This document shows, piece by piece, positions 13,227 through 45,788 of a stretch of 64,000 nt of DNA (position 1 is its first letter; each line of letters opens with the position of its first letter). Origin of the DNA: a virus (Duplodnaviria; Caudoviricetes); the IMG/VR virus record IMGVR_UViG_3300035180_001680; one strand, written 5' to 3'. The position numbers were made by a program, and so were the translations under genes. The notes below the pieces were generated by a model. That model saw nothing but the letters and a program-made list of their open reading frames with translations, was not told the origin of the DNA and searched no databases.

Positions 13227-13370
13227 AAGGTTGACACAAAGAACCACCCCGTCAATAGTGGGTTGACGAGTGCCCATTATACTGTGGAACACCTTGTTGT
13301 GAGCATTGAATGTTTTGATGTGCTGATAGAAAGAATTTTGTTGACTGCTGAATTGCTCTAAAATAAGAGT

Positions 13371-13436
13371 TGTATACCTCCCTACTGACCCCTGATGTCA
13401 TGTAAGTATTATCTCATATCGTTACCCTAAAGTCAA
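13371..13436 (-). promoter_or_regulatory. Promoter plus G-rich leader element, copy A
   Basis: TTGACT (13436-13431), N17, GATAAT (13413-13408), then ACTTACATGACATCAGGGGTCAGTAGGGAGGTATACA; no ORF follows. Confidence 0.8.
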
Positions 13437-14709: not shown

Positions 14710-14900
14710 GATCTTACAATTTCTTGTGAACAACCAAATTCGAATAAATCAAAATTCATAATATGAAATGACATCTGTGTTCTCCTTAACTTGATGTGAA
14801 CATTATCTCACAAATGTGACAGAAGATCAACCGTTGACCTGGTAGGTTGGCCTAATAAGATCAACTGTTGACCTGGTAGGTTGGCCTAAAACGTTAGTTC

Positions 14901-14964
14901 TATACCTCCCCACTGACCCCTGATGTCATGTAAGTATTATACCTTTTTGTTACCCTAAAGACAA
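14901..14964 (-). promoter_or_regulatory. Promoter plus G-rich leader element, copy B
   Basis: TTGTCT-N17-TATAAT, then ACTTACATGACATCAGGGGTCAGTGGGGAGGTATAGA, nearly identical to copy A. Confidence 0.8.
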
Positions 14965-22785: not shown

Positions 22786-22861
22786 TGGTGCTGTGTGTCG
22801 GATTTGAACTGACGACCTCATGCTTACAAGGCAAGTGCTCTACCAACTGAGCTAACACAGC
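22786..22861 (-). tRNA. tRNA-Thr(UGU)
   Basis: 76-nt cloverleaf, anticodon loop CTTGTAA, TTCAAAT T-loop, encoded CCA. Confidence 0.92.
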
Positions 22862-22868
22862 ATAAATT

Positions 22869-22945
22869 TGGTCGGACATGTAGGATTCGAACCTACGACC
22901 CTTTGCTCCCAAAGCAAATGCGCTACCAGGCTGCGCTAATATCCG
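22869..22945 (-). tRNA. tRNA-Pro(UGG)
   Basis: 77 nt, C1-G72 pair, loop TTTGGGA, TTCGAAT T-loop, CCA. Confidence 0.95.
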
Positions 22946-23242
22946 AATATCTAACTAATAAAATATAACTCAGAAATGATTGGCCTGTGTTTCCAATCCA
23001 CTATGGGTTTACCAGCGCTCTTTCGAGTTGGTTTCCACGTCTGCCAGCGCATGTCGTGCTGAGTTATTAAAGCACCTTCATAGCGACCAGTCTGGAGGGT
23101 TCACCTCAACAAAAGGTTAGCCTCTTTCTCCTGCCAGAGCGAACGATTATTGAAATTCCATGGCAGTGGCTATATCGTTTATCGTTCCTTGTACTACTCT
23201 ATTATATCAGACCTTCGCTATAAAGGCACTTTAATTTTATTT

Positions 23243-23318
23243 TGGAGCGGTGTGTCGGTCTCGAACCGACGGCCTCGAACTTGGAAGGATCGCGCTCTAC
23301 CTACTGAGCTAACACCGC
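23243..23318 (-). tRNA. tRNA-Gly(UCC)
   Basis: 76 nt, loop CTTCCAA, U73 discriminator, CCA. Confidence 0.93.
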
Positions 23319-23332
23319 AATAATACTATTTA

Positions 23333-23405
23333 TGGAGCAGGAAAGTTGGGATTGAACCAACTTCTTTAAGGTGGACCCCTAACGCATTCAATATGCTATT
23401 CCCGC
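23333..23405 (-). tRNA. Atypical tRNA-Gly(UCC)-like gene
   Basis: GCGGGAA/TTCCTGC acceptor stem plus TCCA, normal TTCAATC T-loop, but anticodon loop GGTCCAC lacks U33 and the D-arm is short. Confidence 0.65.
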
Positions 23406-23483
23406 AAAAAGGTATTTCAGATTCGGGGCGATGTTCCCGATAAACGCCTCAAATGAGTTTCTGAAATACACAAAAATGTATTT

Positions 23484-23617
23484 AGTAAAGAATGTAAGAG
23501 GAATCGAAACCTCCAACAGCGACGGTGCGCTGCCTGTAGCCTTGGGTAATTCGACTGGCCAATCTTATTACCTCACATTAGTTCTGGATTGCAGCCCAAA
23601 ACCTAACATTCTTTACT
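23484..23617 (-). ncRNA. Candidate tRNA-like structured RNA (about 134 nt)
   Basis: 12-bp terminal stem, T-arm GAGG-TTTCGATT-CCTC just before the 3' strand, variable-arm-like hairpin; directly behind a TTGACT-N17-TAAAAT promoter. Confidence 0.45.
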
Positions 23618-23723
23618 ACATACACATTTTATAGCAATCTATTTATAAAGTCAACAAAAAGTTTTGGTCTCTATATCCGGTAATCTTGTGAACTACCCAA
23701 TTGTTCAATGGGGGTAGTTCACC

Positions 23724-23828
23724 TTAGATCATATTAATGGAATAAATGATGATCATAGATTAGAGAACTTGAGAACAGTTTGTCCTAAATGTGATTCATT
23801 ATTACCAACTTTTTGTTGTAAAAACTAA
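23724..23828 (+). pseudogene. HNH endonuclease remnant
   Basis: LDHINGINDDHRLENLRTVCPKCDSLLPTFCCKN*; no start codon, and the 5' part is replaced by a hairpin. Confidence 0.75.
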
Positions 23829-23839
23829 AAGTTAAAAAA

Positions 23840-24159
23840 TGGTGCCCCGAGCCAGATTTGAACTGGCACGCTCGAAAGCGAGGGATTTTAAGCGGTTGTG
23901 TCTCGAAGTTTCCTTCAAGCCCGGACTATCTCTTTACCTTCAACATTATTTGGTCAGGTAATGGGCGTTCAAAGCTGGTTATTAAGAGGACTAAACCTCT
24001 CCAGTAGTCTCTACACCTTCAAGTGATGTATCACTTGCTTGGCTCGCGATTGCCATTTTAAAGGCTCTCCCGAATTAACCCATAGTTTACTCAAAGTTTC
24101 CAATTGAGGGGGACTAGCGTCATGCGATCCCTTGTGTCTACCAATTTCACCATCGGGGC
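23840..24159 (-). tRNA. tRNA-Leu(UAA) interrupted by an intron (exons 24127-24159 and 23840-23892)
   Basis: 5' exon GCCCCGATGGTGAAATTGGTAGACACAAGGGAT; 3' exon CTTAAAATCCCT, variable arm, T-arm, CACCA; closely resembles E. coli leuZ. Confidence 0.9.
23893..24126 (-). mobile_element. Group I intron, 234 nt, no ORF
   Basis: Core elements P (AATTCGGGAGA), Q (AATCGCGAGCC), R (GTGTAGAGACTA), S (AAGAGATAGTCC); P3 ATGGG/CCCAT; GAAA-capped P9; terminal G; P1 GGGAT/GTCCC with a U.G pair. Confidence 0.88.
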
Positions 24160-24275
24160 ATTAAATTATAAAAGAACAGTCACACCAAAAACATTTACTT
24201 CTGAGTCATTCTTCTAACTCCTTCTTTACTGGGAGACTATTATATATTAAGTATCCCATAAAGTCAACAAAAATT

Positions 24276-24351
24276 TGGTGGGCCTGGAGGATTACGATAC
24301 CTCGACCTTGGCGTTATGAGCACCCTGCTACTTCCTCTGAGCTACAGGCCC
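24276..24351 (-). tRNA. tRNA with CAU anticodon (Met or Ile2), atypical T-loop
   Basis: 76 nt, loop CTCATAA, CCA end; T-loop reads ATCGTAA instead of TTCRANY. Confidence 0.8.
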
Positions 24352-40199: not shown

Positions 40200-40284
40200 T
40201 GTAACAAGTGTGAAGAGGACTCGAGAAAAAGTCAATGGTATATTAGTACTGTTGACTTTTATTTTGTGTTCTAAAACTTGACTT

Positions 40285-40349
40285 GTATACCTCTCCCCTG
40301 AATCTTGATTTCATAAAGACATTATACCTCAAACTGTCCCAAAAGTCAA
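40285..40349 (-). promoter_or_regulatory. Promoter plus G-rich leader element, copy C (back-to-back with a + promoter)
   Basis: TTGACT-N17-TATAAT, then GTCTTTATGAAATCAAGATTCAGGGGAGAGGTATAC; the -35 lies in the palindrome AGTCAACTGTTGACT. Confidence 0.82.
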
Positions 40350-40665: not shown

Positions 40666-41377
40666 TAGACAGACACTACTGTTTACTAGTAAGCAACTTT
40701 CAAAAATAATCACTTTCAGAACCTATCTCATTTTATTTTTCACATATCTGAATCCTCTCTCTTCAGATAGCTCTTTAAGGGGAAGCATCATGCTTCCCCT
40801 CTTTTTTGAGCGTAGCACTCACTCCAAACACAAAGACACAAAGATGTACACATAACACAAATGGGAAGATAATTGACTACCCAGCAGCAAGGAATGCTAC
40901 CAATTATAGACATTCATACAACACACAGCAGTGTCTGAAACGTACAACAGTATTGTATTGGGTTGATGATTACTGAATGAGGGTAAGTGTACTCAATGTA
41001 TTGAACTGATTATTCAACCACACCAACAATTATGAAGTGTGTACCTTTATTCTGTCTACTTGGTAAAGGGAAACGTGATACCCGACACACATGGGTAAAC
41101 ATGGAAGGTTGGGTTGTTGGGTACAATGAGAGACGGTATGGTAAGACAGTGTTCACATACTGAATGTAATCACTGTGGTGAACAACCTACAAAGAGAGCA
41201 AAAATTTGGACCCTTTTCAGTTATAATCAAAGTTATATACCTATAACTTTTACTGATCAACACGAGTTCTTATCAAATTTGTGTATCTCCCGATCAGGTT
41301 TACTTATCACGACGGGGGGTTGAAAAATGTGGGGTGGGGTGAGTAAGTGAGGTGAGATTAGAGTGGTCTTGTTTGAA

Positions 41378-41495
41378 AGTCAACTGTTGATCTTTTTATT
41401 TTTCGTTAAAACTGACCTGTACTCGAGATCGTATACCTCTCCCCTGAATCTTGATTTCATAAAGACATTATACCTCAAACTGTCCCAAAAGTCAA
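41378..41495 (-). promoter_or_regulatory. Promoter plus G-rich leader element, copy D
   Basis: Identical to copy C over about 65 bp; continues GAGTACAGGTCAGTTTTAACGAAAAATAAAAAGATCAACAGTTGAC as in copy E. Confidence 0.82.
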
Positions 41496-41560
41496 CAGTT
41501 GACTTTTTCTTAAAAGGGTAATACAATATCTTTTCTAAAACGTTATAAAGAGAGAAAGAA

Positions 41561-41755
41561 ATGACAGTACTACAACTGATCAAGTCTCTGATGTCTGTCG
41601 AAGACAAATCCATTAATGTAATTATTACGGTTGAGTCGGGGTTGAGTTGTTTATCTTCAAGTGATGTGTTCGGTCAAGAAACATACAGAGAAGATGAAAA
41701 TGGTGAGTCGTATAACGTTTTTGTTATCGAAGGTGAAGAGACAAGTTTCGAGTAA
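41561..41755 (+). CDS. Small acidic hypothetical protein
   Basis: Behind TTGACT-N17-TACAAT (41499-41527). Confidence 0.55.
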   Translation: MTVLQLIKSLMSVEDKSINVIITVESGLSCLSSSDVFGQETYREDENGESYNVFVIEGEETSFE

Positions 41756-41791
41756 TTATCTTTAAAGAAAAAGTCAACGATGAAATGTTCG

Positions 41792-41885
41792 TTGACTTTT
41801 TCCCCTTTTAGAGAGATAATGTACTCGAAATCAGGAATTCAGGGGAGAGGTATGGAGTTTAGAGTACAGGTCAGTTTTAACGAAA
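41792..41885 (+). promoter_or_regulatory. Promoter plus leader copy E; left arm (41810-41885) of a 76-bp inverted repeat
   Basis: TTGACT-N17-GATAAT, then GTACTCGAAATCAGGAATTCAGGGGAGAGGTATGGAG. Confidence 0.85.
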
Positions 41886-42182
41886 AATAAAAAGATCAAC
41901 AGTTGACTTCTTTAAGTTCTTGGTGTTCGAATTTCAAAACATACTCTATACAAAAAGTCAACTGATTAATTCTGAAACATACTTTATACAAAAAGTCAAC
42001 TTTTATTAATTAAAATAGATGGGGTATTGTGTTTTTGTGTGGGTGTGGTAGAATGGGGGTGTGGTGTGTAGGGGGTGTAAAGTATTGTTTTTAGTGAGAA
42101 AGTTGTGGAGTTTTTTGAAAGTTTGTAGTAGAATGTTTGTGTTGTTGAGAGAGAAGTTAATTTGATTTTTAGGAGAGTGAAA

Positions 42183-42755
42183 ATGTTGAAAATGATTAAT
42201 AATGAAATGAATGTGGGTTTTGATGAATTAGTTAATGTGTTTGTTAGTAAGTTTGAAGAAAAGTTGTATGTAAAGAAAGAGAGTTTGAGTAAGAGTATTA
42301 AAGAAGTAAAGAGTAATGTTGAAAAGTTGAAAAAAGAAGTATTGGGTAAAGTTAATTTGAGTAAGTATGAAATTGTTATTGATGTATTAGGTTTGAAATG
42401 TAAAGTTAATAAAGATAGTATAAGTGTTTATTTTAGTGAAGATAGAAAGAAAAGTAGTTATATTGATTTTGTTGTTTATATGTATGATGTAAATGATAAG
42501 AGTTTGGGGTATTGTGTTAATAGTAAGAGAATTAATGTTGATATAGATGTTGATGATGTTGTTGAATATGAGAGTTATATTAGTGAATTAAATAAGTTGA
42601 ATGAAGAATTAATTGAAGTGGTAAATGAAATAAAGAGTATTAGTAGAAAGGAAAGGAGTATTAGGAGTAAGATTAGTGAAATGAAATTGAAAGAGTGTGG
42701 TTTAGAAGAATTGTTGGGAAATGATGAAATAATGAAATTGATTGAATTGAAATAA
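42183..42755 (+). CDS. C-free gene 1 (190 aa, terminal coiled coils), unknown function
   Basis: AGGAG at 42171 then ATG at 42183; no A, P, T, H or Q residues. Confidence 0.8.
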   Translation: MLKMINNEMNVGFDELVNVFVSKFEEKLYVKKESLSKSIKEVKSNVEKLKKEVLGKVNLSKYEIVIDVLGLKCKVNKDSISVYFSEDRKKSSYIDFVVYMYDVNDKSLGYCVNSKRINVDIDVDDVVEYESYISELNKLNEELIEVVNEIKSISRKERSIRSKISEMKLKECGLEELLGNDEIMKLIELK

Positions 42756-42806
42756 AATAGAATTGTGGTGGTTAGGGAGTTTTTTAATTATATAGAGGAT
42801 TAAAAA

Positions 42807-43388
42807 ATGAGTAATGAAATGGTTTATGTTATTAATGTGAATAATGAATTTGTTTTGGAATGTAAAAAAGTATTGATTGAAGATGTTGTTGATGTGTTTT
42901 ATAGTAGAGAAGAAATGAAAGAAATGGGATGGAGATATAGAGATGTGAGTTTAAAAAAAGGTAGAATTAAAGAGTATTTAAATGGTTTAGTAAAAGAAAT
43001 GAAAGATAGTGGAAAAAAGAGTATTAAATTGAGTAGTTTGTTTGTTGGTGTTTGTAAGAGTTATGGTTTAAAGATTAGTGAATATGTTGAAGGTGTGAGG
43101 AGATTAAATAATAAGTTGTTTTTGTATGAAAAGAAAAAGAATAGTTATAGTAAAAGAGATGTAATTAATTTTGTGGATATGGGAGTAATGTTAATAAGAA
43201 AGAAGTATGGGATTGAATTAGATATAAAGAATGTGAGTTATAGTTATGATGGTTGTGTGAAAGTTGTAAAAGATTTGATTAGTTTATATGAATTGTGTAG
43301 TTATAAAGGAAGTAGGTTTATAGTGGAAAAAGAATGGATTGAAATGATTTATAATAAAGAAGGGGAATTGTTTAAGAAGAAAGAATGA
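42807..43388 (+). CDS. C-free gene 2 (193 aa, basic), unknown function
   Basis: GAGGA site; no A, P, T, H or Q residues. Confidence 0.8.
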   Translation: MSNEMVYVINVNNEFVLECKKVLIEDVVDVFYSREEMKEMGWRYRDVSLKKGRIKEYLNGLVKEMKDSGKKSIKLSSLFVGVCKSYGLKISEYVEGVRRLNNKLFLYEKKKNSYSKRDVINFVDMGVMLIRKKYGIELDIKNVSYSYDGCVKVVKDLISLYELCSYKGSRFIVEKEWIEMIYNKEGELFKKKE

Positions 43389-43400
43389 AATAAAAAGTTG

Positions 43401-43429
43401 TTGTGTTTTTTGTGTGGGTGTGGTAGAAT
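43401..43429 (+). promoter_or_regulatory. C-free promoter (second copy at 42027-42054)
   Basis: TTGTGT-N17-TAGAAT with an extended -10 TG; the motif TTGTGTTTTTGTGTGGGTGTGGTAGAAT is duplicated. Confidence 0.65.
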
Positions 43430-43448
43430 AGTGGTGTTGATAATATGA

Positions 43449-43691
43449 ATGGAAAAAGAAATGAAAGTTGAAATTATTAGTGTTATGTTTGAAGATAATA
43501 TTAGTAATTTTTGTGGTGGAGGTTTTTGTAAAGTTGAATGTAGTGGAGAGAATATTGAAGATTGTGTAGTGAATGATTATTATAAAGGAGATTGTGAATT
43601 TGATTTAGATATAGATTTAAGATATAAGGTAGAAGAAGATGTTTATTATTTGAGAAATAGAGAGAGATTGTTAATTATTAAAATAATTTAA
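43449..43691 (+). CDS. C-free gene 3 (80 aa, acidic, Cys-containing), unknown function
   Basis: Behind the C-free promoter; no A, P, T, H or Q residues. Confidence 0.65.
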   Translation: MEKEMKVEIISVMFEDNISNFCGGGFCKVECSGENIEDCVVNDYYKGDCEFDLDIDLRYKVEEDVYYLRNRERLLIIKII

Positions 43692-43708
43692 AAAGTTGTT
43701 GACTTTTT

Positions 43709-43740
43709 AAAAATGACCTGACCTAAGTCAAGTCATTTTT
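43709..43740. terminator. Bidirectional terminator-like hairpin closing the C-free cassette
   Basis: AAAAATGACCTGAC-CTAA-GTCAAGTCATTTTT. Confidence 0.7.
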
Positions 43741-43768
43741 TATTTTTATAAAAGTTGACTTTTATTCA

Positions 43769-43862
43769 TTTCGTTAAAACTGACCTGTTCTCTAAACTCC
43801 ATACCTCTCCCCTGAATTCCTGATTTCGAGTACATTATCTCTCTTTTTGACCCTAAAGTCAA
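43769..43862 (-). promoter_or_regulatory. Promoter plus leader copy F; right arm (43769-43844) of the 76-bp inverted repeat
   Basis: Reverse complement of 41810-41885 with one mismatch; -35 TTGACT at 43862-43857. Confidence 0.85.
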
Positions 43863-44089
43863 CAGTTGACCAAATCCCCTAATTCAGATACAATGTCCTC
43901 ATTGAAATCAAAAATTATGTTTCATTTGGAGTAAATGGTATCATCTGTGTCGGTTCCGGCACCTGCCCTGAAATTGAGGGCACCGAAGAAGTTTTGGAAT
44001 ACATTGAAAGAATTTGTAACTAATTGTTGTCCTCAACCACAGTTTGTGTGACAATGGTCTCACTGAAACGTTAATTGAAAGGAAACAAA

Positions 44090-44518
44090 ATGACCAACAC
44101 CAAGACCTCCAAGAAATCGATTTTCATTTCCGCTTTCAACGCCCTGCCCGTTGACATGAAGCGCAAAGAAGCTCTTGCAATTCTCAGTGAACAATGTGGC
44201 CTTTCGATGGCAGGTGCAAGTACTTATTACGCCAACTGCAAGAGTGGTCTGTGGTCAACTGGAACTGTTCAAAAAGAATCGTATCTTGAAATGATCGCTT
44301 TGGTCACTGGTGAATATATTGCAAAGCATCGTGCAAAAGAACAGGCCAACAGGGCCGTTCAAAGTGTCACACAAAAATCTGAAAAGATCAACCTTGAAGT
44401 GATGACCGGTTCCGAACTGGTTGCTTTGTACAACAGTAAGGTCAGCGATGCCCAACAGATCGTCAAGTTCCGCAACAAGGCTGAAGGAATTAAACGAGTT
44501 GCCGCCCTTATCGGCTGA
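44090..44518 (+). CDS. Protein with an N-terminal HTH-like 'AG(A)STY..N' domain (paralogue of 21279-21668)
   Basis: CGLSMAGASTYYANCKSGLW; C-terminal ELVALYN..KFRNKAEGIKRV. Confidence 0.75.
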   Translation: MTNTKTSKKSIFISAFNALPVDMKRKEALAILSEQCGLSMAGASTYYANCKSGLWSTGTVQKESYLEMIALVTGEYIAKHRAKEQANRAVQSVTQKSEKINLEVMTGSELVALYNSKVSDAQQIVKFRNKAEGIKRVAALIG

Positions 44519-44593
44519 AACTTTGAAATAAGTGTTGACATCTTATCTATAATAGGGTAAGATGTCTTCACTGTAACGAGAAAGAGATGAGCA

Positions 44594-44902: not shown

Positions 44903-45037
44903 ATAGTTACAATGGCGAAGGTGCTCTATGGTGATAGGGCACCTTTGAAATAAAATTAAACAGTTGACTTTGCTATGCGTATGATGTATAATATATGTGT
45001 ATTAGGGGAGGGATGATTTTTTCCAATTTAAGTTGGT

Positions 45038-45189
45038 CCAATCTATCATTAACTATCTTCCAATCTATCATTAATCATTCTCCAATCCAATCCAATCCAA
45101 TCCAATCTATCATTAACTATCTTCCAATCTATCATTAACTATCTTCCAATCTATCATTAATCATTCTCCAATCTATCATTAACTATCAC
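45038..45189. repeat. 22-bp tandem repeat x6 with an internal (CCAAT)4 run, in a G-free stretch
   Basis: CCAATCTATCATTAA(CTATCTT/TCATTCT) at 45038, 45060, 45102, 45124, 45146 and 45168; no G from 45037 to 45210. Confidence 0.93.
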
Positions 45190-45788
45190 CCCACAATTAT
45201 TTTCCAACCCGCGTCACGATTTTTTTGTCACCCTAAAATAAACACCGCACTGTTTTTCCCATATGTGCAAAAATTTTTTGGCAAATTTTTTTCCCAAAAT
45301 CCAAAATTGTTTATAATCAACAGTTGACATATTCCCCTCTATGAGATATAATATGCTTCATCTCATGCGTTATAGGGAAAATGTAAATGTACACAATACG
45401 TGTATCACCTTTTTTCACATATTAGGTGCTCTCATGATGGGAACGATTTGGGGAGGTATAGTATCTCTATTTGTTCTGTTTGTTAGTGGAAACGAACAAC
45501 TCTTCTTTAAGAGGACTCTATACTTGATGGGAATTGGTGCAGTGGTATCACTCTTGGTATATTTAACCGCAAATGGTGTATTGGTTTGGACATAAGGAGA
45601 TATTAATATGTGGCTACCAAATTGGATTTATAATAAACTCCCAATGATTTATTTCATATTGGGATGTTGTTGTACATTGTTTACTCCAAATGTATTTGGA
45701 TACTTTTCAGGAGGTATATTCTTTTTGATTTGTTCATTGATTGTATACCTCCGTTTTAATAACAGATACGAAGAATAGGAGAAGTAGA

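Follow-up and report, generated by a model that had tools for sequence, protein, structure and literature searches.

An inverted repeat around a cytosine-free gene cassette of an uncultured jumbo phage, and the dispersed promoter module to which its arms belong

The repeat arms and the cytosine-free genes between them

The 64,000-nucleotide stretch of viral DNA considered here (IMG/VR record IMGVR_UViG_3300035180_001680, hereafter the window) is part of a ~338-kb contig of an uncultured jumbo phage, and it contains a long inverted repeat whose arms flank three genes that are free of cytosine (C) in their + strand. As described in a first-pass annotation of the sequence, positions 41810-41885 and 43769-43844 are reverse complements of each other with a sole mismatch, T41865 against the partner of 43789; when looser ends are allowed, a repeat search gives arms of 91 nt with 92% identity (41810-41900 and 43754-43844). 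Pieces of the arms 17-20 nt in length occur 3-4 times in the window, compared with 0.01-0.14 occurrences expected from shuffled sequences. The inward-facing promoters that the annotation had placed in the arms were found on both sides, each consisting of TTGACT, a 17-nt spacer and GATAAT. The left promoter is of the sigma-70 type (TTGACT 41792-41797, GATAAT 41815-41820; 41792-41820, + strand), and the right promoter (TTGACT 43862-43857, GATAAT 43839-43834; 43834-43862, - strand) stands back to back with the + strand promoter (43866-43894) of the gene at 44087-44518, with a palindrome (43858-43870) between the two. Both -35 boxes and most of each spacer fall beyond the 76 bp of near-identity, and the spacer sequences of the two arms are unlike.

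A small ORFan gene (41561-41755, + strand), which encodes 64 aa, lies to the left of the repeat and is followed by a strong hairpin, AAAAAGTCAACGA...TCGTTGACTTTTT (41767-41802; -19.4 kcal/mol and z -8.1 as + RNA, -21.1 kcal/mol as - RNA), its predicted terminator. The right half of this hairpin provides the -35 box of the left-arm promoter, an overlap of terminator and promoter of the type described for the promoter-early stem-loops (PeSLs) that are discussed below. A 10-bp direct repeat, GTTGACTTTT, occurs on the + strand at 41791-41800 and again at 43754-43763, the inner end of the right arm, and its two copies bound a segment of 1963 bp. Inward of the left arm follow an imperfect palindromic junction motif, GATCAAC-A-GTTGAC (41891-41912), and two 38-bp direct repeats (41930-42001, + strand) that both end in AAAAAGTCAAC. 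The junction motif forms no stable terminator, and no stable hairpin was found between the left promoter and the cassette when 41880-41925 was folded (z 0.16). On the other side, a hairpin at 43709-43740 with T runs on either side folds on both strands, in agreement with the annotation, and is stronger as - RNA (-17.8 kcal/mol, z -6.2) than as + RNA (-12.3 kcal/mol, z -3.7).

The C-free run of the + strand extends exactly from 42001 to 43702, a length of 1702 nt that can be compared with 73 nt for the next longest such run in the window. It begins 100 nt inward of the left arm, where the final C before it is the last C of the second 38-bp repeat, and it stops 51 nt inward of the right arm. The three genes of the cassette (gene 1, 42183-42755; gene 2, 42807-43388; gene 3, 43449-43691; all + strand) encode products without alanine, proline, threonine, glutamine or histidine (A, P, T, Q, H), that is, proteins written in a 15-letter amino-acid alphabet. 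Sigma-70-like promoters that are themselves C-free (TTGTGT, 16-17 nt, TAGAAT) are located within the block, ahead of cassette genes, at 42027-42055 and 43401-43429 (+ strand). The same type of promoter (TTGTGT or TTGATT, 16-17 nt, TAGAAT) occurs, likewise ahead of cassette genes, at ~255-290 and 925-960 of L012, a contig from a distant C-free lineage.

The family of gene 2 comprises ~40 clusters at 50% identity, most of which use a normal alphabet with 13-22% A+P+T+Q+H. These amino acids are at zero in three lineages (the window, P0027 and P0056) and at intermediate levels in the homologues P0046 (2.9%) and P0042 (5.7%), the latter from locus L016, whose DNA has 9.9% C. Since zero, intermediate and normal-alphabet members coexist in this family, the loss of C from the pair of genes 1 and 2 looks repeated or gradual. 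The gene order in L012, L015 and L016 is the gene-2 homologue followed by the gene-1 homologue; in the window it is gene 1, gene 2, gene 3. An AlphaFold2 model of the gene 2 product based on 40 homologues has a predicted local distance difference test (pLDDT) score of 92.6, and nothing convincing by way of a family or fold emerged from Pfam, PHROGs, PDB sequences, Foldseek (PDB and AFDB clusters), VIA-align or the ESM Atlas. The best structural match of the model (Z 4.7 over 56 residues) is to a small winged-helix/R3H-like sub-domain at residues 49-108. A full-text search of the literature yielded no relevant natural cytosine-free phage genes.

A dispersed module and its arrangements in related strains

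Both arms belong to a family of dispersed ~100-bp modules, referred to here as M, which has six members in the window and is represented by 15 full or partial copies in the four strains compared below; the four window members besides the arms lie beyond the pair that the annotation had recognized. A sequence-only model of M, built from 12 copies, matches four window copies at 72-90 bits, namely the left arm (model match 41792-41888), which is the only one on the + strand, the right arm (43767-43862, -), a third copy at 41398-41495 (-) and a fourth at 40253-40349 (-), between a gene for a 133-aa protein and a WYL_2 gene. Two distant members (13346-13436 and 14877-14964, both -) score 29 bits each, and 11 full or partial copies were found in relatives. 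A 17-nt core, ATTCAGGGGAGAGGTAT, is present three times on the - strand (40287, 41433, 43801) and once on the + strand (41837), whereas 0.14 occurrences in the window are expected from shuffles.

The module contains a GTTGAC -35 element, separated by 17 nt of variable sequence from the -10 box, (T/G)ATAAT, and continues with a conserved, unstructured transcript start of ~27 nt, GAAATCAG.A.TTCA....AGAGGTAT. This is followed by a variable block that exists in three alternative versions, then by AGTTTTA and an A-rich tract, and the 3' end is a hairpin, AAAAGTCAAC...GTTGACTTTT, of the GTCAAC/GTTGAC type. In 12 aligned copies TTGACT, the spacing of 17 nt and (T/G)ATAAT are unchanged, and the sequence of the spacer varies. 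The transcript start is more highly conserved than the spacer, even between lineages with 34% protein identity. Transcripts from - strand copies are predicted to terminate at the hairpins 43709-43740 and, for the fourth copy, 40227-40260. RNAalifold detected neither a consensus secondary structure nor covariation in the M transcript, and a scan of the window against Rfam 15 at the gathering threshold returned three tRNAs and a group I intron, with no match to M. There is no conserved ATG or open reading frame (ORF) in the M leader, and most copies lack the ATG of a possible leader peptide in the arms (MEFRVQVSFNEK), which was dropped for that reason. A role as a sponge for CsrA was likewise dropped, the GGA motifs being unconserved in the L012 copies. 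Exact matches to the 17-mer core in three IMG/VR contigs have unrelated flanks and are attributed to chance, and a degenerate pattern of the 27 nt found no match in the viral_contigs or metagenome_contigs collections.

Perfect GTCAAC...GTTGAC palindromes cluster in the same region (40345, 41491, 41773 and 43858), and a looser pattern with one variable position per half has six matches in the window, as against ~1 expected from shuffles. Being palindromic, these junction motifs share homology whichever way round they lie. The left arm is chimeric: through 41864 it is of right-arm type, and from 41865 to 41909 it is identical to the 3' portion of the third copy (41398-41495), and the T at 41865 that constitutes the single mismatch between the arms comes within the latter stretch. 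This make-up shows that recombination between M copies has occurred. The third copy and the left arm, with the small gene between them, constitute a second inverted repeat (73 nt, 92%). The annotation had viewed the repeats as bracketing the C-free cassette, to which they are not dedicated; the composition of the small gene is normal (12.8% C), and its enclosure by the same repeats is the kind of observation that the annotation had itself named as counting against its view.

Contigs of relatives were obtained through exact-protein look-ups; they stem from sediment and mat metagenomes of the same set and from other studies, and the arrangements of four strains (that of the window and three others) were compared. 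The DNA of 41300-44100 had no match in the INPHARED phage collection in near or distant search modes, and neither did the normal-alphabet gene-2 homologue P0020 by tblastn. Searches for related loci with gene 2, the 143-aa and 133-aa neighbours and P0008 gave none; the source metagenomes apparently lie outside the collections searched. The comparison of relatives at the repeat ends, which the annotation had proposed, revealed the presence or absence of the cassette as well as rearranged flanks. The region is hyperplastic, with multiple insertions or deletions (indels) between strains that are 93-98% identical.

The simplest of these differences is an empty site. In Logan contigs of runs X3 and X2, position 41790 is followed immediately by 43754, so that 1963 nt are absent, and the ten letters of the 10-bp repeat fit either side of the joint. 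In X3, whose flanking contigs differ from the window by 3-4% (a 96-97% identical strain), the depth is 353 at the joint and 320-355 over flanks and joint, as compared with ~34 for the cassette. The Joint Genome Institute (JGI) contig L010 shows the same junction, in which an intact copy of right-arm type comes directly after GTTGACTTTT, itself preceded by the small gene and its hairpin. The variable segment (41801-43763 or, equivalently, 41791-43753) is composed of the left arm, both 38-bp repeats, the block without C and the terminator. Because the empty site keeps the right arm intact, that arm is evidently resident DNA. An inverted pair that marks the boundaries of one functional unit, as the annotation had suggested, is at odds with the retention of the right arm at the empty site and with the direct copies that flank the cassette in two other lineages, which are described next.

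The first of these is strain V4, represented by L004 and L010 joined through 125 identical overlapping bases. Its cassette is 93% identical to that of the window and still C-free (L004 533-2239), and at that place it lacks the small gene and left arm of the window (41509-41889), an indel that ends at the palindromes 41487-41508 and 41891-41912. The V4 cassette is flanked on its left by one - strand M copy that points away from it and on its right by two tandem - strand copies (the duplication covers L004 2302-2508 with a period of 111 bp), and the hairpin 43709-43740 is missing from L004. The small gene of V4 is found ~1.3 kb upstream, at the position of the WYL_2 gene of the window and between two - strand M copies; the copies around this gene are thus direct in V4 (L010) and inverted in the window strain. 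The second is the distant lineage of L012, L013 and L014, from a different study, whose gene-2 homologue is 34% identical and also lacks A, P, T, Q and H. In L013 this homologue lies within a C-free run of 1536 nt and is followed by a gene-1 homologue, and in L012/L013 recognizable M copies flank the cassette, a single one to its left and a tandem pair to its right, each of them in - strand orientation. A further indel, of a gene for 90 aa at 44553-44573, is bounded by promoter/hairpin repeats; where the gene is inserted (L008 370-740, L009 and run X4, corresponding to window 44531-44573), the flanking repeat ends in GTAAGATGTCTTCACTG. All breakpoints relative to close relatives fall in the M family or in GTCAAC/GTTGAC junction motifs.

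In the four strains compared, every M copy is on the - strand with the sole exception of the left arm of the window. Ten full copies are next to + strand genes of the variable region and are antisense to those genes; the two distant copies at 13-15 kb alone lie on the same strand as their genes. Five of the six window copies are on the - strand whatever the local gene strand (- at 13-15 kb, + at 40-44 kb). This bias hints at an orientation rule that is independent of the neighbouring genes, the copies being too few for statistics.

How the inverted repeat might be understood

We consider it likely that the arms are copies of a dispersed module of promoter and short transcript that acts like the PeSL cassettes in a hyperplastic early region. 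Quite probably, too, the inverted repeat at this locus is not an inversion switch but a known kind of phage shuffling repeat, PeSL-like and in variant form. Copies of M and the palindromic junction motifs would serve as portable promoters and terminators and would provide homology for the deletion, insertion, duplication and movement of modules. In the window strain, a 1963-bp segment with an inverted, chimeric M would have come to lie between the terminator of the small gene and the resident M, and the inverted repeat would be the outcome. The annotation had listed a recombination-mobile module among its possibilities, and this one is borne out by the relatives that lack the cassette and left arm or have rearranged repeats, with breakpoints in M or junction motifs.

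Since there is no terminator between them, the promoter of the left M copy would read into the cassette as an extra strong promoter, with a putative C-containing leader of ~175 nt. From the right M copy, an RNA of ~120 nt would be expected, terminated by the hairpin at 43740-43709, where the transcripts of the cassette would probably end as well. Of the two flanking short RNAs that the annotation had considered, the right-hand one would be consistent with the promoter and with the strong hairpin and T run ~120 nt further on. Because the cassette has C-free promoters of its own, and because V4 and L012 have no inward left promoter, it evidently does not depend on either arm.

Several points weigh against the PeSL-like reading or go beyond it. 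Promoter activity, transcript ends and read-through were all deduced from the sequence, and most M copies face away from or against their neighbouring genes and drive no ORF, which classic PeSLs do. PeSL-type recombination between direct copies alone leaves the origin of the inverted copy unexplained. In addition, the link in X3 from the small gene through M to gene 44087 derives from equal depth and not from one contig, because unitigs break inside M. Finally, the transcript start of M is conserved beyond the needs of a substrate for recombination, which hints at an extra function; this segment may act as a small RNA, insulate convergent transcription or bind a protein, though on balance that is unlikely.

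That last point leads to the alternative that survives best, namely that M serves chiefly to encode a small RNA, or to insulate convergent transcription, in concert with the cassette. The flanking copies would then belong to the functional cassette unit and be more than joints for shuffling. This alternative is compatible with the PeSL-like reading, and all copies have the appropriate parts (promoter, conserved 5' region, A-rich tract, hairpin and T run, with a predicted RNA of 85-120 nt). Its 5' ~27 nt are kept between lineages whose cassette proteins are only 34% identical, each of the three cassette-bearing lineages that were read has M copies beside the C-free cassette, and any + strand transcript that reads through from one gene to the next would be complementary to M RNA. 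The lack of a consensus structure, of covariation and of an Rfam family speaks against it, as do the normal genes that are equally flanked by M copies and the loss of the cassette-side terminator hairpin in L004, and we regard it as a doubtful primary explanation. A more elaborate version, in which M is a conserved, mostly antisense gene for a short RNA or insulator that travels with the cassette, its palindromic ends allow modules to flip and the inverted pair is a functional state, seems improbable to us; if true, it would mean that the inverted pair may add a second, C-containing promoter or permit inversion at low frequency.

It is still less likely that the cassette is flipped, and its expression or exposure thereby switched, through recombination of a homologous or site-specific kind between the 76-bp arms. 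The arms, identical at 75 of 76 positions, offer enough homology for recombination in a phage with T4-like genes, the junction motifs are homologous in either orientation, and one M copy was evidently inverted at some time. However, none of the ORFs tested (32.8-49.2 kb) has a recombinase domain, and the inverted layout is missing from both of the other cassette lineages (L004 and L012/L013), which argues against an invertible switch as a conserved property, another of the possibilities that the annotation had raised. Two assemblies extend across an arm, namely the window contig and L006, and their orientation is the same; flipping would not switch off a cassette that has its own promoters. 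The k=31 unitigs of Logan list no strand-changing joint, and they are uninformative on inversion, being too short for the 55-nt identical core. Occasional inversion through homologous recombination between the arms may take place.

A transposon-like element, with the arms as terminal inverted repeats of a mobile unit that carries the cassette, would account for inverted repeats around a strain-variable segment and for the 10-bp direct repeat, and is nevertheless very hard to sustain: the empty site retains the whole right arm, so that the absent DNA has one arm only, in contradiction to a mobile element bounded by terminal inverted repeats; the right direct repeat is inside the right arm and not outside it; the same repeats are present at four other places beside unrelated genes; and no transposase was found among the genes of the region that were tested. 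Equally implausible is the pairing of the arms in single-stranded DNA, by which a loop of ~1.9 kb would be extruded and the C-free strand exposed, since nothing other than arm complementarity recommends it, it is impossible in L004 and L012/L013 (where the annotation's large stem-loop could not form from direct copies and the cassette is C-free all the same), and no mechanism or precedent was found.

If the PeSL-like reading is correct, the inverted repeat is a by-product of ordinary modular shuffling, and the leads of a switch, a transposon or a stem-loop can be removed from the study of the C-free cassette. What remains are constraints on the cassette itself: it is a strain-variable accessory module with a defined empty site and its own C-free promoters, and it is C-free in every arrangement.

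The surrounding genes and comparison with known systems

The genes between 39.8 and 47.7 kb are ORFans, without a functional family or with only families of unknown function. Genes are on the - strand below ~28 kb and on the + strand above, and consensus promoters precede most of the small ones. The window also encodes two T4-like RNA ligases, NAMPT, tRNAs, a group I intron and a gene of the Phage_T4_Y00F family. The closest matches of RNA ligase 1, at ~40% identity, are in Rak2-like jumbo phages. The group I intron (23902-24183; Rfam, 61.5 bits) lies inside a cluster of four tRNAs (Thr, Pro, Gly and Met; 22786-24351, - strand). A G-free run of 174 nt (45037-45210), consisting of 22-bp repeats and CCAAT units, is situated 3' of a consensus promoter (44964-44992); X2-X4 are short of one 22-bp unit at 45145, and the run of L004 is longer (253 nt).

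Synthetic G-less and C-less cassettes and ACA-less mRNAs are laboratory tools. Like a synthetic C-less cassette, the cassette of the window would yield a transcript that needs no cytidine triphosphate (CTP) and gives a C-dependent nuclease, deaminase or chain terminator no C on which to act. Unlike those constructs, it occurs in nature, codes for three proteins and differs from strain to strain.

Like the G-segments inverted by Hin, Gin and Cin and like the shufflons, the locus has a stretch of phage DNA with genes enclosed by inverted repeats. The locus differs from the Hin/Gin/Cin systems in that no invertase is encoded nearby (among the ORFs tested), the inverted layout is unconserved and the assemblies have one orientation. 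The crossover sites of those systems measure 26-34 bp, whereas the arms described here, 76-91 bp in length, belong to a promoter repeat that is dispersed.

A closer comparison can be made with the PeSLs, which are conserved motifs of ~100 bp with a strong sigma-70 promoter and a terminator stem-loop that are found in hyperplastic regions (PMC2839356, PMC4122927). They are known from pairs of T4-type phages, RB49/phi1, T4/PST and KVP40/nt-1 (Arbiol et al. 2010, PMC2839356; Comeau et al. 2014, PMC4122927), and their regions exhibit whole-gene indels between close relatives at the PeSLs, with chimeric motifs at the junctions (PMC2839356, PMC4122927). M is like the PeSLs in its length of ~100 bp, its consensus sigma-70 promoter, its stem-loop and its location in a hyperplastic, ORFan-rich region. 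In both cases the whole-gene indels or replacements of relatives end in the motifs, the junction copies are chimeric, and the stem-loop may overlap the -35 box, as it does here at 41767-41802.

The differences are several. The host of M is an uncultured jumbo phage with an RNA ligase ~40% identical to those of Rak2-like phages, and not a classical T4-type phage. PeSLs have polyG/polyC stems, whereas the junction stems of M are AT-rich GTCAAC/GTTGAC palindromes that contain -35 boxes in both directions. PeSLs end in the ribosome-binding site and start codon of the gene that they drive; M does not end in a Shine-Dalgarno sequence and start codon of this kind, and its conserved part is a transcribed leader of ~27 nt that is mostly antisense to genes and drives no ORF. 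One M copy, moreover, is inverted, which gives rise to the inverted repeats. The PeSL-like architecture would in this way be extended to an uncultured jumbo phage, in a variant that includes an antisense short transcript.

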